A DNA stretch of 64,000 bases from an archaeon (GTDB lineage: Archaea; Nanobdellota; Nanobdellia; SCGC-AAA011-G17; PNOQ01). The notes below the pieces were generated by a model, which saw only the letters and a program-made list of their open reading frames with translations, had not been told where the DNA came from and did not search any database. Made by a program: the position numbers and the translations under genes. How positions within the stretch are numbered: the stretch's first letter is position 1; each line of letters begins with the position of its first letter. The stretch spans positions 244-64,243 of the forward strand of contig JABICB010000013.1 of assembly GCA_018652475.1 (NCBI GenBank). The letters run 5' to 3'. Shown one piece after another: positions 5,817-30,607 of this stretch.

Positions 5817-5869
5817 AAAAATAATAAGTTAAAAAATATATATAAACCTGCCCTTAATAATAATAATCA

Positions 5870-7015: not shown

Positions 7016-7018
7016 TTA

Positions 7019-7921
7019 TTAAATATTTCTAAAAACAAGTTGACCAGAAACATTATCATTTAGATACTTTTGAGCTTTTTTTGTTAAGTCACCATTACTC
7101 AAGAATAAGACTGGAAGTTTCTTTGATCTTGCTTCATCTGAAGCAGAAATTAAATCAGCATCATTAATATTCTTTTTAGCCTTAAATTTTACAAAATATC
7201 TAAGCCTCCCTATATTCGAAGGAAGGTCTACTACAAAATTTAATTCTCTTTCTTTTCTAACAACATCCTTAGAAATAACATACATTTTATTTTCAGAAAA
7301 ATAAGAATCTATTTCCTTCACTCCAGTATTAGTTTTTACTTCTTCAATAGGTTGAATATCCCTTTCCTTTGCTATTTCTTCTTTCTGTTCAGGTGGTGCT
7401 AATGGTTTTTCTTCTTTCTGTTGAATTGGAGTTACCGGTTTTTCAGGTTCTTTTACTTCTTCAGAAGTTCCAGTAGGAGAAAGAGACTCTTTTATTTTCT
7501 CTTTTGCGAGTTCATTATCTGCAAGATACCATTTCCAAAATAATTCATATTCATTACCTAATTTAACATTTAAGGGAATTGCAAAATCTTTTAATTCCCT
7601 CCGTAGTGCGACTCGATTATCTGCATTTTCGAATTTATCACGAATAATTATATCAGATTTTAATTTTTCATAAACTTCCTTTTCAATAACACCCAAAAAA
7701 ACAGATAATTGTTGTAATTTTTCTTCTTGGCCCCTAATAAAATATAAAGGAGATCCTCCTTTTTTGACCTTAGTAATCAATACTTGTTTTTTTTCAACTA
7801 ACTCTGAAAGAATAGCACTAGCTAAGAGAATATTAGTATTCAACTCTTTAGCAAGTTGACCGGGTAAAACAGGCCCTTCTCTTTTTACAAAGCTCAAAGC
7901 TGAAAAAACATCATTACTCAT
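7019..7921 (-). CDS. Hypothetical protein with an N-terminal winged-helix-like domain and a C-terminal domain with a possible restriction-endonuclease-like fold.
   Basis: The N-terminal 70 aa resemble a wHTH (LPGQLAKELNTNILLASAILSELVEKKQV). The C-terminal NFVVDLPSNIGRLRYFVKFKAKK is D...(E/x)xK-like. The middle is an acidic, Pro-rich linker. Confidence 0.3.
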   Translation of the reverse strand: MSNDVFSALSFVKREGPVLPGQLAKELNTNILLASAILSELVEKKQVLITKVKKGGSPLYFIRGQEEKLQQLSVFLGVIEKEVYEKLKSDIIIRDKFENADNRVALRRELKDFAIPLNVKLGNEYELFWKWYLADNELAKEKIKESLSPTGTSEEVKEPEKPVTPIQQKEEKPLAPPEQKEEIAKERDIQPIEEVKTNTGVKEIDSYFSENKMYVISKDVVRKERELNFVVDLPSNIGRLRYFVKFKAKKNINDADLISASDEARSKKLPVLFLSNGDLTKKAQKYLNDNVSGQLVFRNI

Positions 7922-12250: not shown

Positions 12251-12808
12251 ATGAATGAATTAGATTTGATTAAACAAACAGAAATTTATAAAAATTGCAC
12301 AAATATAGTATTTGGAAAAGGAAATAATAAATCAGATATTCTTTTCGTTGGAGAAGCACCAGGAAAAAACGAAGATGAACAAGGATTACCTTTTGTAGGA
12401 GCAGCAGGAAAAAATCTAGATAAACTTCTAAATCAAACTAACCTATGCCCAACTGATATATACATAACTAATATTCTGAAATGTAGGCCTCCGAATAATA
12501 GGGATCCCACTAAAGAAGAAATAGAATTACACACACCATATTTAATTAAACAAATAAAAGAAATGCAACCCAAAATAGTTTGTTCATTAGGAAACTATTC
12601 AACTAAATTCTTTTTAGCAGAAGGAGATATAAAAAAAATGAAACACCAAAAAAATATAACAGAAATACATGGTATACCTATTCATATTTTTTTCAAAGGT
12701 ATAAAAATAAAATTAATTCCCTTATTTCATCCAGCTGCAATGATTTACAATAGAAAATTAATTCCCGGATGGGAAGGAGATATTAAAAAAATAAAAAAAG
12801 AAATGTAA
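12251..12808 (+). CDS. udg: Uracil-DNA glycosylase, family 4.
   Basis: GEAPGKNEDEQGLPFVGAAGKNLDKLL is the family-4 motif (GE.PG..ED..G.PFVG.AG). A C-terminal HPAA is also present. Confidence 0.8.
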   Translation: MNELDLIKQTEIYKNCTNIVFGKGNNKSDILFVGEAPGKNEDEQGLPFVGAAGKNLDKLLNQTNLCPTDIYITNILKCRPPNNRDPTKEEIELHTPYLIKQIKEMQPKIVCSLGNYSTKFFLAEGDIKKMKHQKNITEIHGIPIHIFFKGIKIKLIPLFHPAAMIYNRKLIPGWEGDIKKIKKEM

Positions 12809-13711
12809 TTATTCTCCAATCACATTCATAATTGTTGAAATTTCAGTTTCATACTTGTAACTAATCTTTAATTCAATAACATCACTATATGAATCTGTAG
12901 AAATTATAGATTTATCACAAATCAAAGTTTTAGAACCTTCTTTTAATGAAACTTCTCCAATATTAGATTGACCCGTAGTGAAATGACAAACAACATCAGA
13001 AGGAATAACTTCAACCTTAATCTTGCCTTCATCCATTAACCCAAATGATTCACAATCTCTATCTATTGAATAAACCTTGCCACCTTCTTTATTTTCTATA
13101 ACAAATGCAAATCTAATTCCAGTACTACTAAGGTAACTTTCTGTTAAAGATATAACTTGTATCGGTCCAGAAGATACTGCGCCAGATATTAATTTTTCGC
13201 CAGAAATATCGCAAATTTCAACTCCAGTTTGTTTAATCTTATTTGAACTCATACAAACATTAGAAAATAATTTAGTTTCGTAAGGATAACATAATCTAGC
13301 ATAAATGGGTTGTTCATATGACCCATAAATTTGTTTAACATAACTACCTTCTCCAAGAGAAATTATATTTTCTCCACCGGTTTCGAGAGTTTGATCAATT
13401 CCCATTAAATCCAAAGTATTAGAAACAAAATTTGTATTTAATGCAGGCCATGCATCTTCAGAAAAACCAAATAATTTAACTTTTGCTTGGCCAGCAGAAA
13501 TATCAAATTCTCCCTTATTTGATAATAAGGTCTTAAAGGAAACAATCTCTCCTTGTGAAAATGATGTATATGGTGCACCTTCAATAAAAGACAATACTAA
13601 TCCCTCACTTCCTCCCTTGAACGGACCCTGGGAAATCAATTCCTCTGTTCCACACCCTGACATAAATAACAATAATCCCACTGATATAATTAAAAATAAT
13701 TTAGATTTCAT
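12809..13711 (-). CDS. Putative lipoprotein / secreted protein.
   Basis: MKSKLFLIISVGLLLFMSGCG is a signal peptide with a lipobox-like Cys. The C-terminal ISYKYETEISTIM is paralogous to the end of 13730..14620. Confidence 0.4.
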   Translation of the reverse strand: MKSKLFLIISVGLLLFMSGCGTEELISQGPFKGGSEGLVLSFIEGAPYTSFSQGEIVSFKTLLSNKGEFDISAGQAKVKLFGFSEDAWPALNTNFVSNTLDLMGIDQTLETGGENIISLGEGSYVKQIYGSYEQPIYARLCYPYETKLFSNVCMSSNKIKQTGVEICDISGEKLISGAVSSGPIQVISLTESYLSSTGIRFAFVIENKEGGKVYSIDRDCESFGLMDEGKIKVEVIPSDVVCHFTTGQSNIGEVSLKEGSKTLICDKSIISTDSYSDVIELKISYKYETEISTIMNVIGE

Positions 13712-13729
13712 ACTCTTGCCTCCATTTTA

Positions 13730-14620
13730 TTATATTTTCTCATTTTTTCTTTTTAAAGGTATCGCCCCAGTACTGATTGTTGTTGAATATGTATAATCAA
13801 GAGAAATAGCAAGAGAATCATAATAAAAATCCTGCCTCCCTAATGATACCCTCCCATCACACCTCACCACCCTGCTATTATCAATTAATTCTATTCCCTC
13901 TGTAGAGGAAGGATAACAATCAAAAGTAGAAGGGGTACCAATTAAATTTATATCTAAATTTACTTTATGTCCGTTATCTTCTGAAATAACTTCTCCTTCT
14001 TGTGCTTTTTTTAAATGAATATCGAGATATAACCTATTATTATTTCCTTCCGGAACAATATTATATTCTATCATCTCTATACCGACTGGAGCAAAATCTG
14101 CAAGTATATCATTCCCGGCAAGAACAGAACTCGCACTACAACCATCTATGTTCACTGAAGGATCTCTCTTTAGACAAAGCTCTGCCCTAGAAATAGTTTT
14201 CAAATCATATGTCAATTTAGCATTAATATTAGTTGTACTTACACCCATTGCAAGATTCCCATAGGTATAAGAATTTCCAGAAACTGGAAATTGTATTAAT
14301 TGTGTGTCGGGATACTTTTGATCATTAACTATTTCTGCAGGAGAAAGATGAAGGAGAGTACACTCTGGTTCTTGAATTCCTCCAAAGCTATTTGCAGGAG
14401 TATCGTAAATACAAAGACTTCCATCGAGATATTTAGGAATATTATTAGTCAACTCAACACCTACAAGAAAATTTGCATCTTCCCTAATTAAATTTGTTGG
14501 TTGATTTTCTAAAAATTTCATATCTATTCCGCCAATATTAGTTTCTTGACCCGGACCACCCATACATGAAGACACGAAAATCGCCACCAATATGATAGAT
14601 AAAATTGATAAATACCTCAT
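13730..14620 (-). CDS. Putative lipoprotein / secreted protein, paralogous to 12809..13711.
   Basis: MRYLSILSIILVAIFVSSCMGG is a signal peptide with Cys. The C-terminal SLDYTYSTTISTG aligns with the neighbour. Confidence 0.4.
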   Translation of the reverse strand: MRYLSILSIILVAIFVSSCMGGPGQETNIGGIDMKFLENQPTNLIREDANFLVGVELTNNIPKYLDGSLCIYDTPANSFGGIQEPECTLLHLSPAEIVNDQKYPDTQLIQFPVSGNSYTYGNLAMGVSTTNINAKLTYDLKTISRAELCLKRDPSVNIDGCSASSVLAGNDILADFAPVGIEMIEYNIVPEGNNNRLYLDIHLKKAQEGEVISEDNGHKVNLDINLIGTPSTFDCYPSSTEGIELIDNSRVVRCDGRVSLGRQDFYYDSLAISLDYTYSTTISTGAIPLKRKNEKI

Positions 14621-14663
14621 TTTAATTAAATATTATATTAAAATATATAAAAATCTTTCTAAA

Positions 14664-16223
14664 TTAATAATCGAAACAAGAACCATCTACATAAACACAA
14701 GGACCAAAATTACAAAGGTCCGATACACATTCTTCTTCAGCACTATAATCTTCACAACTTGTTGAAGAAAAAGAACAAGACTTACATGAAACGAAATCCC
14801 CACTACTAGAATAAAGAGGCATACATCCTTCTGCAGATAAACACTCCTCATTAATTTCGAAATCATCACATACATCACCCATTTCATTTCTTATAACTGT
14901 AATAACTTCTTTCTTTTCAATTTCATAAACATAATCAACTTCTGCCCTAATTAAACTAAAAAAGAAATCATTACCTTCTGGAAGATCAAGAACTTTAAAA
15001 CTACATTGAAGTTCTATATCCCTAAATTCTTCAATACAATCTGCATCTAGAGCATAATAATTACTATTTGCACAATCCATATTTATTTTATTATTTAAAG
15101 AATGATTAGTAATCTTGTATACTTTGAATCCTTCATAATAATCACCAGTATCTTCAAAATCACATAGCCTTACATCATTACTAAATTCTATAGCCGAAGG
15201 AACATAAAGTTTTAAATCTTTAACACGCTTCAAATTGCCAAAATCCTTAGTAATAAGTTCAACATTAAATAAAACGAAATCACTCTCTTGTGAAAATGGT
15301 TGACTTGTTTCACTACTTAATTTCAGATCAATCGGACCCTCAGTCACTTGAGAAACCATAACATTTTGAGGTTTTATTAATAATTCATTAGTAACTTGAA
15401 TTCGATTATTCATAAAGGGATCTTCACCCATAATTAGAAAAGATTCTAGTAAGTTATGGTCCATAAAATAAACCCTGTAAAAAGATTCGGTTTTAAAATC
15501 ATATTCTGCCTTTAATTTGGCCGTTTCAGAATGTTCATTTTTAGTAGTACTTAATCCTTCTGGAAATATACAACTAATCTCTTGCCTTCTTGTTACTCCT
15601 TTCCCATAAATAGTATAACTTTCAGGATAAATTTCTATTGGCCCATTATAATCCCCCAACTCGCAAAGAAATCTTATTTCCATCCCTTCATCCAATAAAC
15701 CAGCACCGTCTACTATTCCCCTTGCCTGGATAGGTTCGTTAGATAGGAATTTGTCTTTAGTTTCAATAAAACTAATTATATTAACTCCTAAAAAATCATA
15801 CTCTTCATTTTCAATAACTTCAGAACCCCATGCAAAAGTATTTCCTATTTCAGAAGGATTTTTAAATATTTTCCAAAAATTGAATAATCCTGATTCAATC
15901 GGAGCCCCAACACCATCTAGTGCTACAAGTCCTTCTTCTGTCATTGTTGAACCTGCACCAGAACTCCAAACATTAAAAATGAACATTCCAACAAAAAATA
16001 TTAAACCGAGAATTACTATAATCATTATAAATTTCATTAATTTGCCAAATAATATTGCAAAAGAAAATTTAGAGAATTTAAATTTTTTCTTAGGTTTTGA
16101 GGGTTTATCTTCAGGAGTTTCCTCTTTCTCTTCTTCCGCAGAAGTTTCCTCTTTCTCTTCTTCCGCAGAAGTTTCCTCTTCCCCTTCTCCCTCTAATAAA
16201 ACCTCTCTTTTTTCTTCAGTCAT
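14664..16223 (-). CDS. Single-pass membrane protein with a cytoplasmic acidic-repeat N-terminus, a large extracellular domain and a C-terminal Cys-rich module.
   Basis: N-terminal EEEKEETSAEEEKEETSAEEEKEE is encoded by tandem 27-nt repeats. A TM segment FAILFGKLMKFIMIIVILGLIFFVGMFIF follows. The C-terminus is Cys-dense (CDDFEINEECLSAEGCMP...CKSCSFSSTSCEDY...CNFGPCVYVDGSC). Confidence 0.4.
   Translation of the reverse strand: MTEEKREVLLEGEGEEETSAEEEKEETSAEEEKEETPEDKPSKPKKKFKFSKFSFAILFGKLMKFIMIIVILGLIFFVGMFIFNVWSSGAGSTMTEEGLVALDGVGAPIESGLFNFWKIFKNPSEIGNTFAWGSEVIENEEYDFLGVNIISFIETKDKFLSNEPIQARGIVDGAGLLDEGMEIRFLCELGDYNGPIEIYPESYTIYGKGVTRRQEISCIFPEGLSTTKNEHSETAKLKAEYDFKTESFYRVYFMDHNLLESFLIMGEDPFMNNRIQVTNELLIKPQNVMVSQVTEGPIDLKLSSETSQPFSQESDFVLFNVELITKDFGNLKRVKDLKLYVPSAIEFSNDVRLCDFEDTGDYYEGFKVYKITNHSLNNKINMDCANSNYYALDADCIEEFRDIELQCSFKVLDLPEGNDFFFSLIRAEVDYVYEIEKKEVITVIRNEMGDVCDDFEINEECLSAEGCMPLYSSSGDFVSCKSCSFSSTSCEDYSAEEECVSDLCNFGPCVYVDGSCFDY
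16114..16194. repeat. Tandem in-frame 27-nt repeat (about 3 copies) inside the 5' coding region of 14664..16223.
   Basis: ggagtttcctctttctcttcttccgca / gaagtttcctctttctcttcttccgca / gaagtttcctcttcccc... is directly visible. It encodes (AEEEKEETS)n on the minus strand. Confidence 0.8.
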
Positions 16224-16233
16224 TGTATCTAAA

Positions 16234-17355
16234 TTAAATTAAAGTTATTTTAAGCGTTTCTATATCAAAAATAACCAAAGGAATAATCTTAATTGTATTA
16301 TCTCCATCAAACACATATTCGGTTATATCTAAATTAAATATATTAGTTTCACTTTCTAAATCAATTTTTACATTATTAATATATATTTCAGCAAGATGTC
16401 CAACTTCATTAGAAGCCACATCCATATAAACAATTGAACTATCGACTAAATTTATATTGAAATCTCGAGTAGGAAAAGTAGGTATATCCAATCTATTAAT
16501 TAATTTAATATTATTAAATGAGTAATCTCCCCCATCAATAGTAAACTTCAGAGAATTTATTCCAGCATTTAACAAAGAAGAATCGATTTCAATTACTCTA
16601 TTTTGTAAAGAACAAGGCAAATTTTCAAAAAGAATATTTTCATTATTCAAGTAAATTTTCAAAATATTTACATCTTCTGCAACATTACAATAAGAAGCGA
16701 AAGATAAACTAGAAGAAGATATTGACTCTTTTTCTAAAAAAGAAACCTCGAATTCTGAAACATCTCCAGAGTAGACTACTTCATATTCATTTTTTAATGA
16801 AATATCCATTAATTCGCAATTATTTTTCGACCAAAAAGAAATACCTGAAAAATCTACAGATAATTTCAATTCATTTTCTTCTTGTAAATAATCAACAGGA
16901 AGAACCACTACTTTAATGCCCTGAGTTAGTTCACTAGCATAGATCTCATGATCATTTAATTTAACTTTGAAAATTCCCTTTGAATCTATTACTGCAAAAG
17001 ACAATAAACTCCTTTCGATATTATCTAAATCAACTAAATTAAAATTTAAAGTCTGATCTTTCTTACCAAATAAACTATTCTTTAAAAGTATCTGATTAGA
17101 TAGTACTCTAATTTCCGGAGAAGATTTGAAAAAAAGATTTGTATTCATAAATTCATGAATTGAAGAATCTTCAGCCTCAGGTAATAAAATTCCGAATGAT
17201 TCTGATAAAATCACTTCGCCACCATAATTAGAACAACTATCACACCCTACTCCAATTAAGTCACATTTTTCGCAAGGTGCCAATAATATTACATATACTA
17301 ATAATAAAAATGCAAGAGTCAATACTAGTCCAGAAGTTGTAGCTCGTCGATTCAT
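16234..17355 (-). CDS. Secreted protein with an N-terminal signal peptide; function unknown.
   Basis: MNRRATTSGLVLTLAFLLLVYVILLAPCEKCDLIGVGCDSC is a hydrophobic leader followed by a Cys cluster. It is the first gene of a four-gene minus-strand surface-protein block. Confidence 0.4.
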   Translation of the reverse strand: MNRRATTSGLVLTLAFLLLVYVILLAPCEKCDLIGVGCDSCSNYGGEVILSESFGILLPEAEDSSIHEFMNTNLFFKSSPEIRVLSNQILLKNSLFGKKDQTLNFNLVDLDNIERSLLSFAVIDSKGIFKVKLNDHEIYASELTQGIKVVVLPVDYLQEENELKLSVDFSGISFWSKNNCELMDISLKNEYEVVYSGDVSEFEVSFLEKESISSSSLSFASYCNVAEDVNILKIYLNNENILFENLPCSLQNRVIEIDSSLLNAGINSLKFTIDGGDYSFNNIKLINRLDIPTFPTRDFNINLVDSSIVYMDVASNEVGHLAEIYINNVKIDLESETNIFNLDITEYVFDGDNTIKIIPLVIFDIETLKITLI

Positions 17356-17424
17356 ACAATTTAAAACAAAATAAGATATAAAAAGTTTTCTATTAAAAAT
17401 AAAGAAAGTATTTTAAATAATAAA

Positions 17425-18416: not shown

Positions 18417-19289
18417 ATGATAATAGAATTATTAATAATCTTAACACTGATCTGGTTAATAGTGGCGTCACTCACAGATATAAAGATAAGAGAAGTACCT
18501 AATTGGTTAAGTTTTAGTTTAATAATAATTGCGATTAGTTTTCAATTAATTAACTCCCTAATAAATAACGATCCAAACATAATCATAACCAGCATAAAGG
18601 GATTTAGTATATTCTTTATTATTGGCAATTTGATGTATTATACCAAACAATGGGGAGGAGGAGATGCAAAGATATTAATGGGGCTTGGGGCAATTTTTCC
18701 AAAATATCCCACGGAATTATCTTCCATTTTTAATCCGGAATTAAATCTCCCATTTTTAATAATCATATTATTAAACATATTAATAGTTGGTGCCATCTAT
18801 AGTTTAATTGCCAGCATAGTTTTAGCAATTAAAAATAAAAATAAATTCAAAAAGGAATTTAATAAAAAAATAAAAAATAAAAAAATAACCTTGGTAAATA
18901 AAAGTATCATCATTTTTTCAGTTATGACTTACATACTATTCCTTTTATTATTAAAAACCACATTAATTCCAGTGATATTTGCAACATTACCTTTGATTTT
19001 ATTTTATTTATGGATAATTATTAGTGTAATAGAAAAGATTAGTATGTATAAAATATTAAAGGTGAATCAACTACGAGAAGGAGATTGGGTAGTAAAGAGA
19101 ATAAAGAATAAAGATAAAATAATCTATACTCCTAATGTAAATGGAATAACAAATAAAGAAATTGAGAAATTAATTAAAAATAATATAAAAAAAGTAACTA
19201 TTAAAGATGGATTACCCTTTTTACCTGCAATACTCTTAGCAGTTATAATAAGTTTAATATTTGGAAATATATTAATGTATATTATCTAA
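18417..19289 (+). CDS. Prepilin / preflagellin peptidase (A24 family, GxGD aspartyl protease; PibD/FlaK-like) with a C-terminal extension.
   Basis: The first catalytic Asp context is ASLTDIKIREVPNWLS. The second is TKQWGGGDAKILMGLG, a GxGD motif. The protein is polytopic. Confidence 0.7.
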   Translation: MIIELLIILTLIWLIVASLTDIKIREVPNWLSFSLIIIAISFQLINSLINNDPNIIITSIKGFSIFFIIGNLMYYTKQWGGGDAKILMGLGAIFPKYPTELSSIFNPELNLPFLIIILLNILIVGAIYSLIASIVLAIKNKNKFKKEFNKKIKNKKITLVNKSIIIFSVMTYILFLLLLKTTLIPVIFATLPLILFYLWIIISVIEKISMYKILKVNQLREGDWVVKRIKNKDKIIYTPNVNGITNKEIEKLIKNNIKKVTIKDGLPFLPAILLAVIISLIFGNILMYII

Positions 19290-22672: not shown

Positions 22673-23425
22673 TTAGTTATTACATATAAAGACTTCGCCT
22701 TGGAGAGGATTTAATTCATCAAAATCCACTGCGGCCCTTATCTTTATTTGTTCAGTACCCTGTATTGAATCAACAGCATACTCTTTTGAACTAAATATGA
22801 AGACATCTTCCTTAAACTCCCACTCAAACTCTGCAGAAGTTTCCCAACAAGAAATATCCCCATCACATGAATCAATAACAGTAACAACTTCACCAACAAA
22901 ATTAACAAAATCGTCAAAATTATAATCTACTTCAAAATAAACATCGGGAGAAATTGAATAAGTTCCTATTTTAGTACCATTATCTAAAATATCATAATTT
23001 AATTTGTCTGAAGAATGAGCCAAAACAAAAAAAGAATTTTCTTTATCTTCATAAGTAAATGAATAATTAATATTAGTTAAATTATTCAATAAAGCACTGA
23101 ATTCTTTTTTTAACATTTCTTTAGTCGGATAACATTCTAAATTGCCAACCTTCCAAAGATTGAAATCCTTATTATGACTTAATGAAGAACTTCCACCCCT
23201 TTCTAATAAATATCTCAAACTATTTGCACTTTTAAAAGAATAATCTACAAAAAAGAAATCTTTCTCTGCCAGAGTATATGCATCTATGAGTTCTAATTGA
23301 GAATTTCCAAGATATTCAATACGGATATTTTCATGATAATCTACAAATAAAAACATAGATACTCCTATGCCTAACACTGCATACATGAGCACATATAATG
23401 TGAATAAACCTTTTTTTCCTACCAT
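22673..23425 (-). CDS. Pilin-like protein with a class-III signal peptide; last gene of the pilus operon.
   Basis: MVGKKG|LFTLYVLMYAVLGIGVSMFLFV shows a KKG cleavage context followed by a hydrophobic helix. It overlaps the upstream gene. Confidence 0.45.
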   Translation of the reverse strand: MVGKKGLFTLYVLMYAVLGIGVSMFLFVDYHENIRIEYLGNSQLELIDAYTLAEKDFFFVDYSFKSANSLRYLLERGGSSSLSHNKDFNLWKVGNLECYPTKEMLKKEFSALLNNLTNINYSFTYEDKENSFFVLAHSSDKLNYDILDNGTKIGTYSISPDVYFEVDYNFDDFVNFVGEVVTVIDSCDGDISCWETSAEFEWEFKEDVFIFSSKEYAVDSIQGTEQIKIRAAVDFDELNPLQGEVFICNN

Positions 23426-24006
23426 TCAAAACAATCTCCAATGAATCTAATATCTGTATTTATAAGAGAAACATATAAATCAGTTTTGAGTTTTTGTTGT
23501 AAAATACTTCCCTCTAAGCACATATCATCAAAGGCAGGTCCAACTGGATAAGTACAAACAGAATTAATCTCTATAAGTTTCACATCACCTTCTTCATTTG
23601 GTTGAGAGCCTATACTAATTTTATAACCCCTAATATAATTAAGATCATTAATCTCATTACAATAATTGAGATTTTTAAAAATTTCAAAAGTTGATTTCCT
23701 TAAAAAATCACCAAGATCATCATTATCAGATAAATAATATTTTTCAGTTAAGACTGCAATAGTTGTCGATTCAATAATCCCATCCCCATCAAGATCATAT
23801 TCAATAGGTGTACGCAAATAATTTAATAAGTTTAAATTTTCAATAGAATAACCTATCTCTCTTTCCAATAAAAGTTTTTCTTCAACATCTGCCGATTTGA
23901 AATCTCCGAGACTCATAATTAAAACATATGCCAACAATAAGACACCAATTAAAAGGATATTAACTGTCCTTAACATGACAGTAGTTCCATTTTTATTCAA
24001 GAGCAC
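23419..24006 (-). CDS. Pilin-like / pilus accessory protein.
   Basis: MLLNKNGTTVMLRTVNILLIGVLLLAYVLIM is an N-terminal signal-anchor. It overlaps both neighbours. Confidence 0.4.
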   Translation of the reverse strand: MLLNKNGTTVMLRTVNILLIGVLLLAYVLIMSLGDFKSADVEEKLLLEREIGYSIENLNLLNYLRTPIEYDLDGDGIIESTTIAVLTEKYYLSDNDDLGDFLRKSTFEIFKNLNYCNEINDLNYIRGYKISIGSQPNEEGDVKLIEINSVCTYPVGPAFDDMCLEGSILQQKLKTDLYVSLINTDIRFIGDCFEW

Positions 24007-24490
24007 TCACCACCTTAATATTCAAATAACCAGGTGATAAAATTGAATTATTCATATATAAAATATAATTATTAGCAGTATAACAATCAAGATTCGAATT
24101 TTCAAGACCACATAATAACCCTTGACTAGATGCAACAGTATTCACTTCAAAACTTTTTATTATATTCCTATCTATATCCATCAATTCTAATTTGAATCCT
24201 TTTTTAATATGATGATAATCAACACACTCTGATATAATAACTTCATCGAATTTTCTTAAATCAATAATTCCTGGATAACTTCGAATACTATCAGTATAAC
24301 TAAAACAATTAGGAGAAAGAAAAAGATTACTAATTAGCATATGTTTCTCTAAGTCCACTGTGTCTACATCCAAATCCGTATTCATGTATGCTGTCAGAAC
24401 CAGAACACCAAAAACAAATAAAATCAAAATAGAATAAATAACCAAATTCATTTGTTCTTCAGTTAAAAAAATGAATCCTTTCTTATTCAT
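23993..24490 (-). CDS. Pilin-like protein with a class-III signal peptide.
   Basis: MNKKG|FIFLTEEQMNLVIYSILILFVFGVLVL shows KKG|F with an acidic residue shortly after the cleavage point. Confidence 0.5.
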   Translation of the reverse strand: MNKKGFIFLTEEQMNLVIYSILILFVFGVLVLTAYMNTDLDVDTVDLEKHMLISNLFLSPNCFSYTDSIRSYPGIIDLRKFDEVIISECVDYHHIKKGFKLELMDIDRNIIKSFEVNTVASSQGLLCGLENSNLDCYTANNYILYMNNSILSPGYLNIKVVSALE

Positions 24491-24893
24491 ATGTTCTACC
24501 TCCTCTAATAACTAAGGAATTATAAGATTTATTAAAAATTAAAAAATCATAATCTCCTTCAGATATATAATCTTTATCTATATAATTATTATTTGCACAA
24601 TAATTTTTTGAACCAGATAATTCTGGAGTATCCTTTAAATTGACTTCAACCAAACAATTTTGACCAAATTTGATTTCTAATCGGTCTTCATTTTGAAAAA
24701 TAGAATAATTCAAATTAATTGCCCCAGGAGAAATAAACATGACTTCTTCAAGCAGAGATATATCTTTTGCTAAATGTCTCTGATTAAATGCAGTTTCATC
24801 GGCAAGTTTGGCCATAGTAAAAAATAACGCCAATAAAACTAATGTAGTTATAATTAAATATCCTGGCCAAAGATATGTCCTCTCCTCTTCCAT
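24483..24893 (-). CDS. Pilus-operon membrane-anchored protein.
   Basis: Its single N-terminal TM segment is YLIITTLVLLALFFTMA. It overlaps neighbours by 8 and 0 nt. Confidence 0.35.
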   Translation of the reverse strand: MEEERTYLWPGYLIITTLVLLALFFTMAKLADETAFNQRHLAKDISLLEEVMFISPGAINLNYSIFQNEDRLEIKFGQNCLVEVNLKDTPELSGSKNYCANNNYIDKDYISEGDYDFLIFNKSYNSLVIRGGRTYE

Positions 24894-24924
24894 AAGAAAA
24901 AATTAGTTTACCTATATATAAATA

Positions 24925-25413
24925 TTATTGATTTGATTTGATTTCACGAATGATTACAACACTATCTTTTTTTTCAAGTTCCAAGGTCATATACTCTTTA
25001 GTTTTTGTTAAAATCACACCACTAATATGTTCGCTGTCGAATTCTAAAATATTTTCAAAAACAGAATAAAACGGTGGAGAAAGACAAGATTCTTGACCTC
25101 CTGACGTTGAACAAACTGCAAGACAAGCATTATTAGAGCACCCTGTTGGTTTTAATATAGCATCTGATTTTTTAGAAAACCCCGAATCAAAACTCACTAG
25201 TTTATAACCCTTATCTAAATAAAATAAAGTATTGGTTTTTTCAAGATTAGATAAATCTTTAATTAATAAATCTAACTGATCCATTGATCTTTCAGTTAGC
25301 TCTAATCCATCTTGGAAAAAGATACCCCACATCACACCCCCAACTTTAATGGATAAAAACAAACCTGCAAGACCTATAACCAATCCAAATATTAATTTAA
25401 TACTTACTTTCAC
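24925..25413 (-). CDS. Pilus-operon membrane-anchored protein (GTG start).
   Basis: The N-terminal TM segment is KLIFGLVIGLAGLFLSI. The start codon GTG overlaps the stop of the upstream small ORF (GTGA). Confidence 0.35.
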   Translation of the reverse strand: MKVSIKLIFGLVIGLAGLFLSIKVGGVMWGIFFQDGLELTERSMDQLDLLIKDLSNLEKTNTLFYLDKGYKLVSFDSGFSKKSDAILKPTGCSNNACLAVCSTSGGQESCLSPPFYSVFENILEFDSEHISGVILTKTKEYMTLELEKKDSVVIIREIKSNQ

Positions 25414-25580
25414 TGCATTGCCCCAGTAACATTTAACTCAGTGAAGGAAAATATACTTTTCATAAAATTTTCAAATACTCCAAAAAACTCACTAATCTGT
25501 TCATTAAAAATAAAAATAATAAGAACAAGAACTATCACCGCAATTATACTCACAACGATAGTTTCTAAAGTAATATTCAT
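25410..25580 (-). CDS. Small (56 aa) pilin-like protein missing from the ORF track.
   Basis: Manual translation of the minus strand gives MNITLETIVVSIIAVIVLVLIIFIFNEQISEFFGVFENFMKSIFSFTELNVTGAMQ*. It has a single N-terminal hydrophobic helix. It fills the gap between 25413 and 25602 and overlaps the next gene by 4 nt. Confidence 0.35.
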   Translation of the reverse strand: MNITLETIVVSIIAVIVLVLIIFIFNEQISEFFGVFENFMKSIFSFTELNVTGAMQ

Positions 25581-25601
25581 AGGACACCTTCAGACAGTTT
25601 A

Positions 25602-25955
25602 TTAGCAACCGCCTTCATTTGTGATGGCACTACATGTCACACCTAGTTGACTGCAGGTCTTAGTCACATCAATCTTTCCATCAAAATCAGTATCTAGTTC
25701 ATAAGTTTTTTCACCACAAAAATTATCCTTATAATCTTCTAATCCTATTAATTCATAATTTGAACAGAAACCATTACATTCAGCAATTGCTTGTTGAGTA
25801 TCTATTGGTTGTGCACCATACATTGATTTTATTTTACCCACTATATTGGTCATTCCGCCCGTAAAAAATGCAGCAATTATTACTAATGCTAGAATTGCCA
25901 GGATCGCAATGATAATAGTATTCATTGAAAGACTTTGACCTTTTTTATTATTCAT
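25602..25955 (-). CDS. Archaeal type IV pilin (class-III signal peptide); the best major-pilin candidate.
   Basis: MNNKKG|QSLSMNTIIIAILAILALVIIAAFF is a textbook archaeal KG|Q prepilin-peptidase site followed by a hydrophobic helix. The mature part is small with Cys pairs. Confidence 0.6.
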   Translation of the reverse strand: MNNKKGQSLSMNTIIIAILAILALVIIAAFFTGGMTNIVGKIKSMYGAQPIDTQQAIAECNGFCSNYELIGLEDYKDNFCGEKTYELDTDFDGKIDVTKTCSQLGVTCSAITNEGGC

Positions 25956-25987
25956 TATAACACCTCAATACAAACCTACAAAAATGA

Positions 25988-26194
25988 TTATTTAAACTTT
26001 TTGGTATTATTTTCCTCTAACTTATATTTATAATATTTTTTGAATAAAGGAAAATAATGTAAGACTCTTATCCAGAGAGGTAAGACTATCATACTATCTT
26101 CAATATGTTCCTTTAATTTATCCCTACTTTTATCAAGGCTATCTCTTAAATTAATCCCATTTACAGTGATAAAATTATCGTTTATAGGTATCAT
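25988..26194 (-). CDS. Hypothetical small protein within the pilus operon.
   Basis: 68-aa ORF with no TM, tightly packed between operon genes. Confidence 0.25.
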   Translation of the reverse strand: MIPINDNFITVNGINLRDSLDKSRDKLKEHIEDSMIVLPLWIRVLHYFPLFKKYYKYKLEENNTKKFK

Positions 26195-26198
26195 TATA

Positions 26199-27374
26199 TT
26201 ATATTATATGTGGAGAAGAGTTCTCTCCCAAAACAGATGAATCTGTGACTCCTAAGTTATTATTATGATTATTTAAAATATTCATTTTTTCTTGATATTG
26301 TGAATAAGTTATACTTTTTCCATTATAATATTTTAACCAAATATCAAATATATCTTGGGTTGTATAAATTTGTTCACCTGAATAATTATTTAATAAATGA
26401 GAATATGCTAAAGCTATTGCAAACTCATTATCATTGATTAAGACAGCAGAAATTTTTTCATTATTCCAATCTATCGAATCATAACCATACACATCGACAA
26501 TTTCTTCACCTTCAAAGCCATTTAATGCATCATAAACTGACCTAAATCCATTAAATTCTAACATAGACAGTCCTTTTTTATTTCCCCCCATATAAACAGA
26601 TTTAGAAGGATCATATACAATATTAGTATTAATGAATATGCCGGAATCATAAGATTCTATAAAAATTATGCCCTTGAGTAAATTTGCTAAATTGTTATTT
26701 ATATCAAGATTTAATGACACCAAAGAAATTAAATTATTTAATGAAGAAATTCTCACAGAAGAATCAAAACTACTCAATGCATCATCTTTATCTTCGAAAG
26801 ATTCATCTTTCTGTGAACATTCTAAAGTTAATAAATCATATTCTTTTGCAACTGATTCAGAGATAATACAAATATTGTCTGAAACTTTATAAAACAATAA
26901 AGAAGAATCGAAATTACCTTCGAATTCATCAATATGTAGATCATTAGTTCCATACAATAATATTAATTGACCAACATTTAAATCAATAGCCGATTTCCAG
27001 GGTTCGAGAATAAAACAAAAAGAACTATCTAGTGTTCTCTCAACTAGTTCGAGTTTAGGTGTATTTAATTTTAATAATGAATGCATACCTTTCTTTTCAA
27101 TCAATAAAGAATAACCAGTAGGATATCCAATTTCAGATTTTGTACAAAAACAATTATTACTTTCATCTTCTGCACAAAGAGAAAGTAGTAAAAATGTATC
27201 TTCAAAAATATCCCTGGCATCTTTTTGTGTAGATATTTCTTCTTGTGTGATAAAAAGATCCCATTCAAATTTATGGCCTAAGGTAGTGAGAGTATCAGAT
27301 CCCCACCACCCTACTACTACAACCAACACAACAATCAAAATAGCAGAAATTATTTGTTTTAAAGTTAAACTCAT
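26199..27374 (-). CDS. Pilus-operon membrane-anchored protein (391 aa).
   Basis: The N-terminal TM segment is IISAILIVVLVVVVGWWG, with a large extracytoplasmic domain. The start ATG overlaps the stop of the upstream small ORF. Confidence 0.35.
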   Translation of the reverse strand: MSLTLKQIISAILIVVLVVVVGWWGSDTLTTLGHKFEWDLFITQEEISTQKDARDIFEDTFLLLSLCAEDESNNCFCTKSEIGYPTGYSLLIEKKGMHSLLKLNTPKLELVERTLDSSFCFILEPWKSAIDLNVGQLILLYGTNDLHIDEFEGNFDSSLLFYKVSDNICIISESVAKEYDLLTLECSQKDESFEDKDDALSSFDSSVRISSLNNLISLVSLNLDINNNLANLLKGIIFIESYDSGIFINTNIVYDPSKSVYMGGNKKGLSMLEFNGFRSVYDALNGFEGEEIVDVYGYDSIDWNNEKISAVLINDNEFAIALAYSHLLNNYSGEQIYTTQDIFDIWLKYYNGKSITYSQYQEKMNILNNHNNNLGVTDSSVLGENSSPHII

Positions 27375-27532
27375 TAGCCCCCACCAAACCTAAACACTGT
27401 TTTGAAATCAATAAATAAATTTGCTAATGTTCCTTTATGTTGCCAAGTAATTACAATAAGAATAACTAATAAGATTATTGCAAGTAAAAAAATTCCTATT
27501 TGATCCCAAGTTAATTCTGCTCTTCTATTCAT
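27374..27532 (-). CDS. Small (52 aa) pilin-like protein missing from the ORF track.
   Basis: Manual translation gives MNRRAELTWDQIGIFLLAIILLVILIVITWQHKGTLANLFIDFKTVFRFGGG*. The start ATG overlaps the upstream stop (ATGA). The stop TAA overlaps the downstream ATG. Confidence 0.4.
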   Translation of the reverse strand: MNRRAELTWDQIGIFLLAIILLVILIVITWQHKGTLANLFIDFKTVFRFGGG

Positions 27533-28344
27533 TGATTACAAGCCCCCATCACTTCATTAGCAGGACCAATATACATTCCTGACACAAAGCCTGTTTTCCT
27601 ATGGAGATCATCATGTGCCAAGATAAGGGCTCCAGCAATACCGCAAGTATACGCTGCAACAGTTAAAGTCGTACCAAATGTGAAAAATGCGGCGGCGGCG
27701 GAAGCAATACATCCTATTCCCGCAGTAACTGTTTCAAAAGTATCTGATTCAAACTCATATCTCTTATCGGCAAAAAATACAACATAAAGCGGCTCAGTAG
27801 TAGAATAATTATCAGTTTCACTAATTTGTCCCACACTAGTATCAGCATAAATATAGTCAAATAAACTCTGTTCTTCCCTGAAGGGGAGTGGCTCTGTGGC
27901 CAGATATTTCATCAACCCGCTAATCTGAGGAGTTTCCTCTTGAATTTTATCACTAAATTCAATCCTGGAACAGATAAAACAATAATTATTACCAGTTCCC
28001 CAATCCCAATCATCTAGAAAATCCCTTTCACCTTTTGCAAATTGATACCAACAATCATACATTTCATTAGAAATTTCAGATTTTATACCTTCTTCATTTA
28101 AATTTTTTATTTTTAATTCATGAGTTTCGCATGCAAGATTTTCGAAAGTAGTTGTTCCTAACAGTTTACTTTGTGCTCTTAAAAAAACACTATCTCTGCA
28201 AGCTTCACGGCTAACACTATCTTCAGCAAAAGGTCCAAATTCAAACAAAAAAAAATAAATGAAAATACCCATTGCCAACATAAGTACTATTACTCCTGCA
28301 ATAGTCATAGCCATCTCGCCTTTTTTAGATACCAAACAATCCAA
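27529..28344 (-). CDS. Pilin-like protein with a class-III signal peptide.
   Basis: MDCLVSKKG|EMAMTIAGVIVLMLAMGIFIYFFL shows a KKG|E cleavage context. An AAAAA stretch and Cys residues occur in the mature part. Confidence 0.5.
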   Translation of the reverse strand: MDCLVSKKGEMAMTIAGVIVLMLAMGIFIYFFLFEFGPFAEDSVSREACRDSVFLRAQSKLLGTTTFENLACETHELKIKNLNEEGIKSEISNEMYDCWYQFAKGERDFLDDWDWGTGNNYCFICSRIEFSDKIQEETPQISGLMKYLATEPLPFREEQSLFDYIYADTSVGQISETDNYSTTEPLYVVFFADKRYEFESDTFETVTAGIGCIASAAAAFFTFGTTLTVAAYTCGIAGALILAHDDLHRKTGFVSGMYIGPANEVMGACNQ

Positions 28345-28477
28345 CTCCTTTTTTTATGATCATATATAAAATAAACAAAGTAAGTAAAATAAATAATAGT
28401 TTGAATGCATTATTTAAAAAACTATTAACTTCGCCCATTTTCTATGTTGAAATATTTTCTTAAATTTATAAAACTTG

Positions 28478-30607
28478 TTAAAATGTAGGTAAAATAGATG
28501 AGGCCAACATACTAAATAAAAGCATGACAATTAAGGAGATTAATAAATAAAGAGTGGTACTTTTTATTAAATTTGATCCAACCTCTGATTGTTCATTAAT
28601 TTTGTCTGGTCCATGTTCAATACCACTAGAAAGAATTGTTAATAGATAAACAATCTGAACAACATATATTCCTACAATTATCTGAAAAAAATAGCTAGGA
28701 ATAGTATCTACCTTATTGAATAATTCAGACATTGCACCCATACCTCCAGTAAAAGTCTGATCACCCTCCATAGTATGTTCAGTCATTATAGATAATTTAG
28801 AGATAACACCCACAATCATCGTGGAGATACCTACAACTATTCCAGCAATGATGGGAGTAAGAAATTTAATTTGACCTTTCATACTGGAAATAATGTCTGC
28901 CAATAAATCTTTTAATCTTTCATTAATTTTATGAATTTTACTTATATAATCTGAAATACTGATTAGTGCTCGAGAAACAACCTGTGGACCTTTATGTGAA
29001 CTTTCAACTAAAACTTCCATAGAACTTTCAATCAAAGGAGTATTATAATTTATTATTGCACCCCTTTCACTATCAAAAATAGCTTCCTTAAGATTCATTC
29101 CACCCTGAGTCAAATTTACATGAATCTTACTAAAAAAATCTCCTGTAGATGTACCTCCCATATTTTCTGCGACATCTTTGAATGCAGACTCAGTAGGAAT
29201 TCCATCCCCAATACGCGTACCTAACTGGAATAAACTAACAGAAAATTCAGATTCTAATTTTTTTATTTCCTTACGAATTTTTCTAGCATCCTTTGTTTTT
29301 GAAGTGAAATATATGCCTGCTCCTACTGCAATCCCTAATGGTAAAAAAAGGCTAAGTAATGCAGCGCCTAAACCAAAAGGACCATAACACTTACCTGTGT
29401 TGAAACATTCAAAATCCAAAAACTTTTCACCCATAAAATTCATATCAAAACCAGGATTAACAGTGTGCAAAATAAATGGTAAAGTACCTAATAATGTGAA
29501 AAGTATAAGTAAAAAAACAGCAAGAGCAGTTGTTCCTTTTTTTGATTTTACTTCTACTGAATTTGCACCATAACCAGTAGGTCGTTGACTAAGTATATTT
29601 GTTCCCATACTATAAACCATTACAGGGAGAATTAAATTGTATAAGAATGCCAAATGCCACCATTGCACTAAACCACCCATAAAACTACCAATTAATGGAA
29701 AAATTACAAGGCCTAAGATTGGTAAAATAACTCCAAGCATATATAACATAGTAATCGGATTTTTCAAATCATGTGCATATTTTAACATACGTTCATATGT
29801 CCCATCCAATATTAATTTTAAACTCTTATCAAGTAATTCAATCCTTCTTTCTTCATTTGGTTCATATAAACTACTCTCTATTAAATGAAATGAATTGACA
29901 AATTCTAAATTATAATCCCTCCATTTAGAAAGATAAAACTCTAAGGATTCTTTCATTGTTGAAAATTTTCCAGTTTCAACATCCCAAAATATTTTCCTAA
30001 GATCTAAAGATAAGGGTGCTCTAATATGGTCTGCAGCAAATTTAAGAGCATTTTCTAAGTTAGAAGTATGTCTCATATAAATAACAATATATAATATACA
30101 TAAAACCATCTGATTACTTGCTTGAAGCCTCCAACGATTAGCTAAACGTATGGGGATCTTTGTAAGTGATTTGAGCGATACTAGTGCGCCCACTACAAAA
30201 AGGAAAGATAACATCAATACAGAACTATTATTGAAAACAAAGTATCCTATGCCCCCTATAAGTACTGCAACAAACATAAATAACGATGCAACAAACATTG
30301 AAAAACTAGCTGCACTAGTAGGAGTTATTTTGAGATGTGTAAATTTTATTGATTCTTCAAGTTGAGTGGAATCTTGTTCAGAAGGTGTAATTTTTATAAT
30401 ACTTTCAGCAAAACTACAAAGTTTTTCATATGTTGAAACTCCTGTAGCCATATATTCTTTTTTAAAAGATTCATATTCTTTAGAAAATCCCGAACTAGGA
30501 GTATAATCTCTAATTTCTTCAGTAGATATATTAGCATCTAATTTAGATTTATACTTATTTAATATTTTTTGTAGTTCCTTTTCGGAAATAGCCATAATGC
30601 ACCTCAA
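28478..30607 (-). CDS. FlaJ/TadC/GspF-like polytopic membrane platform protein of a type IV filament system.
   Basis: At 709 aa it has two blocks of TM helices separated by cytoplasmic domains, as in FlaJ/TadC. Its start overlaps the stop of the upstream ATPase by 4 nt. Confidence 0.65.
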   Translation of the reverse strand: MRCIMAISEKELQKILNKYKSKLDANISTEEIRDYTPSSGFSKEYESFKKEYMATGVSTYEKLCSFAESIIKITPSEQDSTQLEESIKFTHLKITPTSAASFSMFVASLFMFVAVLIGGIGYFVFNNSSVLMLSFLFVVGALVSLKSLTKIPIRLANRWRLQASNQMVLCILYIVIYMRHTSNLENALKFAADHIRAPLSLDLRKIFWDVETGKFSTMKESLEFYLSKWRDYNLEFVNSFHLIESSLYEPNEERRIELLDKSLKLILDGTYERMLKYAHDLKNPITMLYMLGVILPILGLVIFPLIGSFMGGLVQWWHLAFLYNLILPVMVYSMGTNILSQRPTGYGANSVEVKSKKGTTALAVFLLILFTLLGTLPFILHTVNPGFDMNFMGEKFLDFECFNTGKCYGPFGLGAALLSLFLPLGIAVGAGIYFTSKTKDARKIRKEIKKLESEFSVSLFQLGTRIGDGIPTESAFKDVAENMGGTSTGDFFSKIHVNLTQGGMNLKEAIFDSERGAIINYNTPLIESSMEVLVESSHKGPQVVSRALISISDYISKIHKINERLKDLLADIISSMKGQIKFLTPIIAGIVVGISTMIVGVISKLSIMTEHTMEGDQTFTGGMGAMSELFNKVDTIPSYFFQIIVGIYVVQIVYLLTILSSGIEHGPDKINEQSEVGSNLIKSTTLYLLISLIVMLLFSMLASSILPTF

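Follow-up and report, generated by a model that had tools for sequence, protein, structure and literature searches.

An undescribed, lineage-wide gene cassette predicted to encode membrane-tethered surface proteins in Woesearchaeota-type DPANN archaea

Four consecutive genes, denoted A to D, occupy the minus strand of an archaeal, Woesearchaeota-like genome with 29 % GC (Table 1). They were analyzed as part of a window, meaning the whole stretch of 64,000 nucleotides under study. The genes are tightly packed, with gaps of 10 nt between A and B, 43 nt between B and C, and 18 nt between C and D. The region 5′ of A is divergent, and direct reading places the element TTTTTATATC ~25 nt before the ATG of A; in an AT-rich genome, this is weak evidence for a possible archaeal TATA box. 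At the other end of the block, the stop codons of D and of a convergent UDG gene (12251–12808) abut. An earlier reading made from the letters alone (hereafter the sequence-only reading) had described four consecutive minus-strand genes, and all of these open reading frames are present. The block is kept in related genomes, which means that the genes are real and that their grouping is far beyond chance.

Table 1. Coordinates of the cassette, its protein features, and the neighboring pilin-processing and filament genes within the window.
Feature	Coordinates	Strand	Basis or description
Gene D, 300 aa	12809..13711	minus	Putative lipoprotein with MSGC as lipobox (Cys20); paralogous to C
Gene C, 296 aa	13730..14620	minus	Putative lipoprotein with VSSC as lipobox (Cys19); paralogous to D
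Gene B, 519 aa	14664..16223	minus	ORF; predicted single-pass N-in/C-out, beta-sandwich ectodomain
B C-terminal 10-Cys domain (aa ~446–519)	14667..14888	minus	Alignment, spacing table
Tandem Ig-like beta-sandwiches forming the B ectodomain (aa ~146–444)	14892..15788	minus	AlphaFold2 and fold search
B transmembrane helix (aa ~55–87), preceded by the Lys-rich stretch KPSKPKKKFKFSKFS	15963..16061	minus	AlphaFold
27-nt tandem repeat in B cytoplasmic tail, (EETSAEEEK)n	16112..16188	minus	TRF and sequence read
Gene A, 373 aa	16234..17355	minus	ORF; predicted class III signal, hydrophobic helix, three repeats
Three repeats within A (aa ~84–188, 189–288, 289–373)	16237..17106	minus	Possibly CBM35/GH2-N-like (galactose-binding-domain-like) type
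Divergent intergenic region 5′ of A, 69 nt	17356..17424	n/a	Sequence read directly
A24 (PibD/EppA-type) prepilin peptidase	18417..19289	plus	Pfam Peptidase_A24, E 3.5e-16
Type IV filament (pilus) operon	22673..32886	minus	T2SSE-type ATPase, putative platform protein, several class III pilins
Example pilin of the operon, MNNKKGQSLS…	25602–25955	minus (operon)	N-terminus read

The sequence-only reading could name no family for these proteins, and Pfam, NCBIfam, and PDB sequence searches of A–D likewise yield nothing over curated thresholds. It had also stated that clear homology to substrate-binding proteins or housekeeping periplasmic enzymes would count against a set of surface proteins; no such homology appears for A–D or their orthologs in the same three databases. 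Word-indexed searches gave 2–3 matches each for A, B, and D and made them look like orphans, an appearance that exhaustive HMM searching exposed as a sensitivity artefact. The B family comprises 282 cluster representatives at E<=1e-3 in the exhaustive search, one of them in Woesearchaeota GW2011_AR20. A viral or mobile origin was considered and rejected, as no relatives were found in viral contigs and the BFVD matches are generic. No description of the cassette was found in the literature.

The gene order A–B–(C/D), with the last position filled by one to three genes, is found in about 20 loci and was recovered from searches with B homologs and, independently, with D homologs. Orthologs of A (27–83 % identity) are always directly upstream of B, and the lipoprotein paralogs, 1 to 3 per locus, remain attached to B. 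Contigs with the cassette come from groundwater and sediment samples, among them the Hainich ERZ1292623 and JGI 3300025323 data sets. A divergent locus (L019) has B and C/D with A not adjacent, and another (L027) has C/D-like genes only. The usual neighborhood runs from an A24 peptidase through the cassette to MJ0043_C, PAC2, eIF2alpha, L44e, and GINS; five loci (L010, L011, L018, L023, and L026) carry the cassette outside the eIF2alpha/L44e/GINS surroundings. Essentially every related genome sampled contains the cassette, embedded among informational genes. Comparison of these loci shows the block to be a conserved operon across Woesearchaeota-type DPANN archaea. Identities to a Woesearchaeota locus (L001) amount to 40–55 % for the cassette proteins, to mostly 65–84 % for the housekeeping genes on either side, and to 32–53 % for the pilins. 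These values suggest that the cassette proteins evolve at a surface-protein-like rate.

Protein A begins with MNRRA/TTSG, where the slash denotes the end of the leader, and continues with ~20 hydrophobic residues. Class III signals are characterized by a short, positively charged leader whose last residues, [KR][G/A/S], directly precede a hydrophobic segment, and the pilins of the window's own pilus operon have leaders of the same style (KKG/QSLS, KKG/FIF, and KNG/TTV). Leaders of A orthologs end in KKG/Q, KRA/Q, KKS/Q, KRG/N, RKA/Q, and KKG/Q. The helix of A, GLVLTLAFLLLVYVILLA, is followed by a P/PP-x-E-R motif that is conserved in the alignment, and the full arrangement of [KR][GAS], a hydrophobic helix of ~20 residues, and LLPPxER is kept in 10/10 A orthologs. 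An AxA-type signal peptidase I site is absent after the helix, consistent with the retained helix of class III proteins. A is predicted to be type IV pilin-like and to carry a signal peptide of class III, and the A24 peptidase located 1.06 kb away is a candidate for its processing enzyme. The claim that all four proteins start with signal peptides holds for C and D, which have lipoboxes; A has a class III signal and not a classical one, and B, as described below, has a signal anchor.

The proposed connection to the nearby peptidase is borne out by the pilin-like N-terminus of A and by the position of the enzyme in other genomes. Among loci of the usual neighborhood whose upstream side is visible, A24 lies 0–2 genes upstream of A in nearly all; such closeness is found on the P0002 contig and in L001, L003/L004, L005, and L008, and the peptidase is also upstream of A in L016. 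The adjacency could partly reflect the strong overall synteny of the lineage. The ATPase of the pilus operon matches Pfam T2SSE (E 6.4e-15), and its polytopic platform protein is putative, being assigned solely from where it lies and from its hydrophobicity (T2SSF E 0.56). Genes for a filament ATPase or platform protein occur within ~6 kb of the cassette in the window, L010, and L011, and in the latter two no A24 peptidase is found within ±8 kb of the cassette.

Each of the three tandem repeats farther along A is ~95 aa long. Self-comparison of A gives a probability of 93 % and an E of 2.4e-7 (hhalign), and the repeat HMM matches the protein three times (i-E 2e-21, 2e-21, and 2e-12). Against the PDB, the best match of the repeat profile is the CBM35 of a GH26 mannanase (E 0.0086), accompanied by the Xyn30D CBM35 (E 0.017) and GH2 sugar-binding domains, all of them sub-threshold. 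Sub-threshold matches of A or its orthologs in Pfam are Glyco_hydro_2_N (E 0.027), BcsB (E 0.002), and a CBM-like family (E 0.012); further sub-threshold matches are to Glyco_hydro_2_N2 and, in NCBIfam, rhamnoside_JR (E 0.016). CBM35, CBM6, and GH2 N-terminal jelly rolls have a galactose-binding-domain-like fold. The repeats of A resemble these jelly rolls in a signature of '…LNG…' and '…G-N-x-L…' with two invariant Asn, and their profile aligns to the CBM35 of PDB 3zm8 over 84/96 positions, again below threshold. Unlike CBM35 and GH2 proteins, A has no attached catalytic domain. The matches weakly suggest that the repeats are of the CBM35/GH2-N jelly-roll type. Profile comparison found no relationship of A to B, C, or D. 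A weak match of the A HMM at 57466–58020 belongs to a cytoplasmic HTH-type protein and is spurious.

Protein B was described by the sequence-only reading as having an acidic cytoplasmic repeat, a transmembrane helix, and a large external domain in an inverted topology. The order of parts is right: AlphaFold models a helix at aa 55–88 (pLDDT 74–96) and an Ig-like ectodomain that extends to aa ~444. The topology is not inverted. Of the B-family members, 94 have an excess of Lys and Arg on the N side of the helix and 6 have it on the C side, the pattern of an ordinary type II signal anchor. B is predicted to be such an anchor, N-in/C-out, and therefore does not start with a signal peptide. The repeat in the tail is likewise acidic and cytoplasmic as proposed; however, it is not a perfect 27-nt tandem throughout, as TRF reports 2.9 copies with 94 % matches and only two units are perfect, the third being degenerate. 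Copy number was suggested as a check, and it differs between relatives: a 98 %-identical homolog (P0001) is exactly one 9-aa unit shorter, and orthologs at 73 % and 55 % identity are without the acidic repeat. By these alignments, the repeat differs from strain to strain and cannot be counted as a functional feature under conservation.

The structure of B depends on the depth of the alignment. AlphaFold2 reached a pLDDT of only 48 with 4 sequences, and the deeper alignment of 117 sequences was needed to obtain a pLDDT of 86.2 and a pTM of 0.76. The resulting model shows an Ig-like fold for the ectodomain, and fold searches with it, including the Foldseek search that had been recommended, return generic tandem Ig-like sandwiches only. 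Beyond the sandwiches is a C-terminal domain with ten cysteines, modelled at pLDDT ~83–95 and found in 24/121 full-length B-family representatives. It was initially likened to a Cys knot. The domain has a different, fixed spacing (C-x7/8-C-x5-C-x11/12-C-x2-C-x4-6-C-x7-9-C-x4-C-x4-C-x6-C), and nothing points to a six-Cys knot in the tail, which matches no knot family; its matches to Paramecium_SA and Agouti are sub-threshold only.

C and D were proposed to be paralogs with lipobox-like cysteines, and both parts of the proposal stand. A single-sequence BLASTP comparison is marginal (E 0.001 over 59 aa), profile–profile comparison raises the probability to 98.6 % (E 8.7e-16), and profiles with more orthologs give 99.5 % and E 2.8e-22 over 277 columns (hhalign); by these alignments C and D are full-length paralogs. 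Both conform to the lipobox rule of [L/V/I] at −3, [A/S/T/V/I] at −2, [G/A/S] at −1, and Cys at +1, with the Met at −3 of D being a tolerated variant. In the family, a lipobox-type motif at residues 9–25 is present in 23/24 members checked, using the pattern [LVIMFTAG][ASTGVIN][GAS]C, which is wider than the canonical lipobox. C and D are predicted to be lipoproteins. They resemble archaeal lipobox lipoproteins, whose lipidation depends on AliA/AliB (PMC12462473), in their n- and h-regions, motif, and invariant Cys at ~18–21, and differ from the known ones in that their mature domains match no known lipoprotein family. In DPANN archaea, AliA, the lipidation enzyme, is reported to be common, as are predicted lipoproteins (PMC12462473). 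The outer half of B (aa ~230–447) is remotely homologous to C/D (E 9e-6). This relationship is invisible in shallow profiles and emerged at 117 versus 17 sequences; profile comparison at that depth shows C and D to be remote paralogs of the B outer domain. All four proteins are predicted to be exported and membrane-tethered, in keeping with the original description of a block of surface or lipid-anchored proteins.

The best reading of the cassette is that it encodes a surface complex that is tethered to the membrane, occurs throughout the lineage, is so far undescribed, and has a link to pilin processing. That A–D form such a cell-surface assembly, for attachment or for the envelope, is a proposal of evenly balanced confidence, and we infer a role in adhesion. 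The host-interaction role raised by the sequence-only reading is purely conjectural. A would be made as a type IV pilin-like precursor whose short basic leader is probably removed by the neighboring A24 peptidase. The processed protein would consist of the hydrophobic helix and three CBM35/GH2-N-like modules, likely a glycan-binding head. B would cross the membrane once, with its disordered, charged, and lineage-variable tail inside the cytoplasm. Its outer part would comprise a possible helical stalk, for which model confidence is low, together with two Ig-like sandwiches and a 10-Cys knob, rich in disulfides, that is present in this subclade. C and D would be lipid-anchored beside B, and the three may form a hetero-oligomeric scaffold on the membrane surface. 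The scaffold may hold the pilin-like lectin A or work together with it, in the form of a membrane-anchored adhesin or with A as a minor or tip subunit, which the type IV filament machinery close by would then deliver. The purpose assumed for the assembly is glycan binding on a partner cell or surface.

A scaffold of this type would have an analog in bacteria. In the alignment subcomplexes of the type IV pilus (PilN/PilO/PilP) and of type II secretion (GspL/GspM/GspC), paralogous single-pass N-in proteins and a lipoprotein form a membrane-proximal, extracellular scaffold at the filament machinery. B, C, and D resemble PilN/PilO/PilP by analogy in combining paralogous single-pass N-in and lipoprotein components. 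However, they share no sequence or fold similarity with PilN/PilO, having Ig-like sandwiches where the latter are ferredoxin-like. The cassette also lies outside the filament operon, and archaea are without an outer membrane to align with.

Conserved almost universally beside informational genes, the cassette suits a role in the core envelope no less well than one in host adhesion. A doubtful yet serious alternative is that B, C, and D are core envelope proteins of the S-layer type that tile the surface with A as an accessory, the function being architectural and not adhesive. In its favor, the cassette occurs in practically all related genomes sampled, where it is embedded in the manner of a core gene set among informational genes, and its Ig-like ectodomains are fast-evolving and tethered by a transmembrane helix or lipid. 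Ig-like domains are the building blocks of S-layer proteins in archaea, for example the csg protein of Haloferax and the SLP of Nitrosopumilus, and such proteins can carry a lipid anchor. A single ortholog of A has a sub-threshold match to the S-layer SbsC C-terminal domain, and the A repeat profile matches a PDB 'surface layer protein' at E 0.79. Against this, no S-layer family shows significant similarity to the proteins, their size is small at 300–520 aa, and the lipoprotein paralog count varies from 1 to 3. The class III signal of A, the long variable tail of B, and the recurrent closeness to filament genes and a peptidase would also be unexpected in a passive lattice. The four could instead be independent surface proteins that stay together merely through conserved gene order, and most loci do share one syntenic neighborhood. 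This absence of joint function is improbable: the cassette is intact in the five changed neighborhoods, its genes are spaced 5–45 nt, and B, C, and D are homologous, with duplications and losses occurring inside the cassette.

The class III signal of A, coupled with carbohydrate-binding-type repeats, also brings to mind nutrient capture, in which A would scavenge sugars for uptake in a 'bindosome'-like manner, as in Sulfolobales. A wide distribution of class III binding proteins among archaea has been reported (bioRxiv 10.64898/2026.04.22.720090). A shares with them the basic leader and ~20-residue hydrophobic helix, a non-pilin globular part of carbohydrate-binding type, and, close by, an A24 peptidase as well as a type IV filament operon. 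It differs from known class III proteins in its three tandem repeats and in the LLPPxER conserved after the helix, and has no significant sequence similarity to any described family of pilins or binding proteins. No ABC transporter or permease is adjacent to the cassette in any locus examined, similarity to substrate-binding protein families was not found, and bindosomes lack anything that corresponds to B, C, and D. The genes coupled to A are always B and C/D, and not filament core genes or ABC transporters. Sugar uptake is a still less probable role. Least credible of all is a fusexin/HAP2-like function of B, perhaps together with C and D, in membrane fusion or bridging for cytoplasmic contact with a host. 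The match of B to Fusexin1/HAP2 is partial, no better than to generic Ig-like folds, and unsupported by Foldseek, and the idea was downgraded upon examination. Fusexins carry a C-terminal transmembrane anchor after a stem, whereas the sole transmembrane helix of B is N-terminal and its C-terminus is soluble and Cys-rich.

Woesearchaeota and their DPANN relatives are abundant, have not been cultivated, and are believed to depend on host cells. The present analysis turns four 'hypothetical proteins' into a defined, lineage-wide module with a predicted anchoring chemistry of a prepilin-type signal, a transmembrane helix, and lipid anchors, in addition to a predicted lectin head and a fold model of B that is confident. 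Annotators gain three new protein families to define. The module bears on how DPANN archaea build their envelope or attach to partners, and if it were instead the S-layer of these organisms, a gap would still be filled.

The four minus-strand open reading frames described in the sequence-only reading of this DNA are all present, and are denoted A, B, C, and D. They are separated by spacers of 10, 43, and 18 nt within an archaeal genome fragment (GC ~29%) that also encodes RadA, EF-1beta, eIF2alpha, ribosomal protein L44e, GINS51, uracil-DNA glycosylase, a Na/Ca exchanger, and an A24 prepilin peptidase. Database annotation calls the products “hypothetical protein” (locus tags seen: HOD61_01895, _01905, and _01910). 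That no family could be named for them holds as well, as A through D have no match above the curated thresholds of Pfam or NCBIfam and no significant match in PDB sequence searches. The closest taxonomically named genome is a Candidatus Woesearchaeota MAG (locus L001), and a family member was found in archaeon GW2011_AR20, the reference Woesearchaeota genome.

Coordinates of the four genes and associated features in the window
Feature	Position	Strand	Description
Gene A	16234–17355	minus	373 aa ORF
Gene B	14664–16223	minus	519 aa ORF
27-nt repeat in B	16112–16188		encodes (EETSAEEEK)n
Gene C	13730–14620	minus	296 aa ORF
Gene D	12809–13711	minus	300 aa ORF
Uracil-DNA glycosylase	12251–12808		family-4-type
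A24 prepilin peptidase	18417–19289	plus	
Type IV filament operon	22673–32886	minus	
Likely major pilin	25602–25955		117 aa, Cys-rich head

The genes constitute a conserved operon; of its four products, one is of prepilin type, one spans the membrane once, and two are predicted lipoproteins, and three of the four are paralogous. The order A–B–(C/D), where C/D denotes the lipoprotein paralogs or their homologs, is found in every locus with enough flank in a search from B homologs (the related P0002 contig and L001–L013), and again in an independent search from D homologs (L014, L016–L018, L023, L026, L028, and L029). Most loci have two lipoprotein genes; L011 has a single one, and L012 and L026 have three each. 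The exceptions are L019, with B and C/D and no adjacent A, and L027, with three C/D-like genes only. The uracil-DNA glycosylase gene follows D in the window, the P0002 contig, and L001, and in the window the two stop codons directly abut (12808/12809). In most relatives (L002, L003, L006, L008, L009, L010, and L016 compared), D is directly followed by a PHP-domain MJ0043_C family gene that looks endonuclease-Q-like.

Protein A begins with MNRRA-TTSG and ~20 hydrophobic residues, and its orthologs with KKG-Q, KRA-Q, KKS-Q, KRG-N, or RKA-Q. Judged from sequence, these N-termini conform to the archaeal class III (prepilin) signal, and they mirror those of pilins in the pilus operon of the window (MNNKKG-QSLS in the likely major pilin, KKG-FIF, KKG-LFT, and KNG-TTV). 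In that operon, a T2SSE-family ATPase of 760 aa carries a long N-terminal extension, and a polytopic protein of 709 aa scarcely matches T2SSF (E 0.56). At least five of its proteins, the likely major pilin among them, have KKG/KNG class III signals, and most of the encoded proteins have no Pfam match.

A contains three internal ~95-aa repeats (self hhalign: 93% probability, E 2.4e-7), and the repeat HMM matches the protein three times. A repeat profile built from 26 sequences and compared with the PDB best matched the CBM35 module of 3zm8 (E 0.0086; 84/96 positions), followed by Xyn30D CBM35 (E 0.017) and then GH2 sugar-binding domains. Single orthologs gave sub-threshold matches to Glyco_hydro_2_N, Glyco_hydro_2_N2, BcsB, CBM-like, and rhamnoside_JR domains. 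Each match is weak, and all are to jelly-roll or carbohydrate-binding-type domains; a jelly-roll/CBM type is probable for the repeats, not proven. In the 557-aa ortholog of L011 (6301–7974), the third repeat holds a ~160-aa insertion of two Cys-rich units (…CPDGCDADSDKDCCF…YWC…). In A of the window (aa 28–41) and of L001 (6836–7963), a four-Cys cluster (PCEKCDLIGVGCDSC) follows the membrane helix directly; it is a feature of the window and its closest relatives, and more distant orthologs have PPEEREELL at that place. The cluster does not strictly track the 10-Cys tail of B, as L003 has the tail and lacks the cluster.

An exhaustive profile search places protein B in a family with 282 cluster representatives at E<=1e-3, of which 142 reach E<=1e-10. 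Members share a variable charged N-tail, a single transmembrane helix, and an ectodomain of ~380 aa in which about six Cys are conserved, and about 20% add a C-terminal 10-Cys domain of fixed spacing; the Cys-knot proposed for this tail is not borne out. Likewise, the supposed inverted topology is unsupported: Lys/Arg enrichment falls on the N-terminal flank of the helix in 94 members, against 6 with it on the C-terminal flank, which indicates an ordinary type II orientation (N-in/C-out). Besides the transmembrane helix and a helical stretch modelled with lower confidence (aa ~88–129), the AlphaFold2 model (pLDDT 86.2, pTM 0.76; 117-sequence alignment) shows a beta-sandwich domain at aa ~146–254, another at ~288–444, and a compact end domain rich in Cys. 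Foldseek returned integrin legs, complement, intimin, and chaperone-usher chaperones at TM 0.1–0.17. From the model, the predicted ectodomain can safely be described as Ig-like sandwiches in tandem that have no specific relative in fold.

The acidic repeat of B had been read as a perfect tandem; two copies are perfect and the third is degenerate. A homolog at 98% identity has exactly one unit fewer and orthologs at 73% and 55% identity have none, so the repeat is not conserved and is a slippage-prone, dispensable low-complexity insert. The pre-helix stretch has a median of 41 residues (range 0–136; 115 aligned members with a clear helix). The 740-aa ortholog of L010 (8001–10223) has a cytoplasmic tail of ~340 residues that is extremely Lys/Arg-rich (103 K/R), and the stretch immediately upstream of A (6091–6762) encodes a 223-aa protein that is just as basic. 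Orthologs of 940–1060 aa occur in L017, L026, L028, and L029.

Paralogs with lipobox-like Cys had been proposed, and C and D are such a pair, homologous over their full length (hhalign 98.6%, E 8.7e-16; with more orthologs 99.5%, E 2.8e-22), with a lipobox-type motif in 23/24 family members. Deep profiles further relate B residues ~230–447 to C/D ~131–300 (83% probability, E 9e-6, 167 columns), the B and C/D HMMs are reciprocal next-best matches in the window after their own genes, and divergent members in L012 and L027 match both. B, C, and D are thus paralogous versions of a single ectodomain module that differ in their anchors. The three L027 genes (4613–7381) are tandem, very divergent, and without A or B nearby; two score with both HMMs (B E 2e-6 and 6e-5), and they could be evolutionary intermediates or form a branch of the family on their own.

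A, B, C, and D would assemble into a membrane-tethered surface complex, the A24 peptidase would cleave A, and the repeats of A may bind glycans. We give about even chances to such an adhesin or surface complex linked to pilin processing. Placement beside prepilin peptidase or filament genes is recurrent: the peptidase lies 1.06 kb from A in the window, 0–2 genes away in the P0002 contig, L001, L003/L004, L005, and L008, and upstream of A in L016, and filament ATPase or platform genes lie 5–6 kb from the cassette in L010 and L011. Most loci occupy one common neighbourhood, and L010, L011, L018, L023, and L026 lie outside it with the cassette still kept; mere synteny is an improbable account.

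A core envelope or S-layer role is rather unlikely, though the most serious competitor to the adhesin model. Compared with L001, the window shows identities of 40–55% for the cassette proteins, mostly 65–84% for the housekeeping neighbours, and 32–53% for the pilins; the rate for the cassette is typical of surface proteins. Nutrient capture, which the carbohydrate-binding-type matches of A might bring to mind, seems quite improbable. A fusogen-like function is hardly credible: Foldseek gave Fusexin1 a probability of only 0.11–0.12 for the B model. A search of viral contigs found no relatives. Insertions beside the cassette in some genomes (L008 1949–5755; L002 460–1116; L010 13865–16361) encode further secreted proteins that are large or Cys-rich, among them an fn3 and DUF4215 protein of 1268 aa, a Cys-rich one of 218 aa, and two class III pilin-like proteins, of which one has a Laminin_G_3 domain.

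According to one report (PMC12462473), predicted lipoproteins and the lipidation enzyme AliA are common among DPANN. Another (bioRxiv 10.64898/2026.04.22.720090) describes class III signal-peptide proteins that carry binding domains, among them one with a galactose-binding domain at the M. maripaludis Epd locus. These reports speak for plausibility only, and the literature searched held no description of the A–B–C/D cassette. The proposal of a surface repertoire is broadly right, and its eye-catching details (acidic repeat, inverted topology, and Cys-knot) are functionally irrelevant or unsupported. The interest lies in the conserved A–B–C/D module, in which familiar parts (class III signal, Ig-like and CBM-like folds, and lipobox) are joined in a combination not described before.
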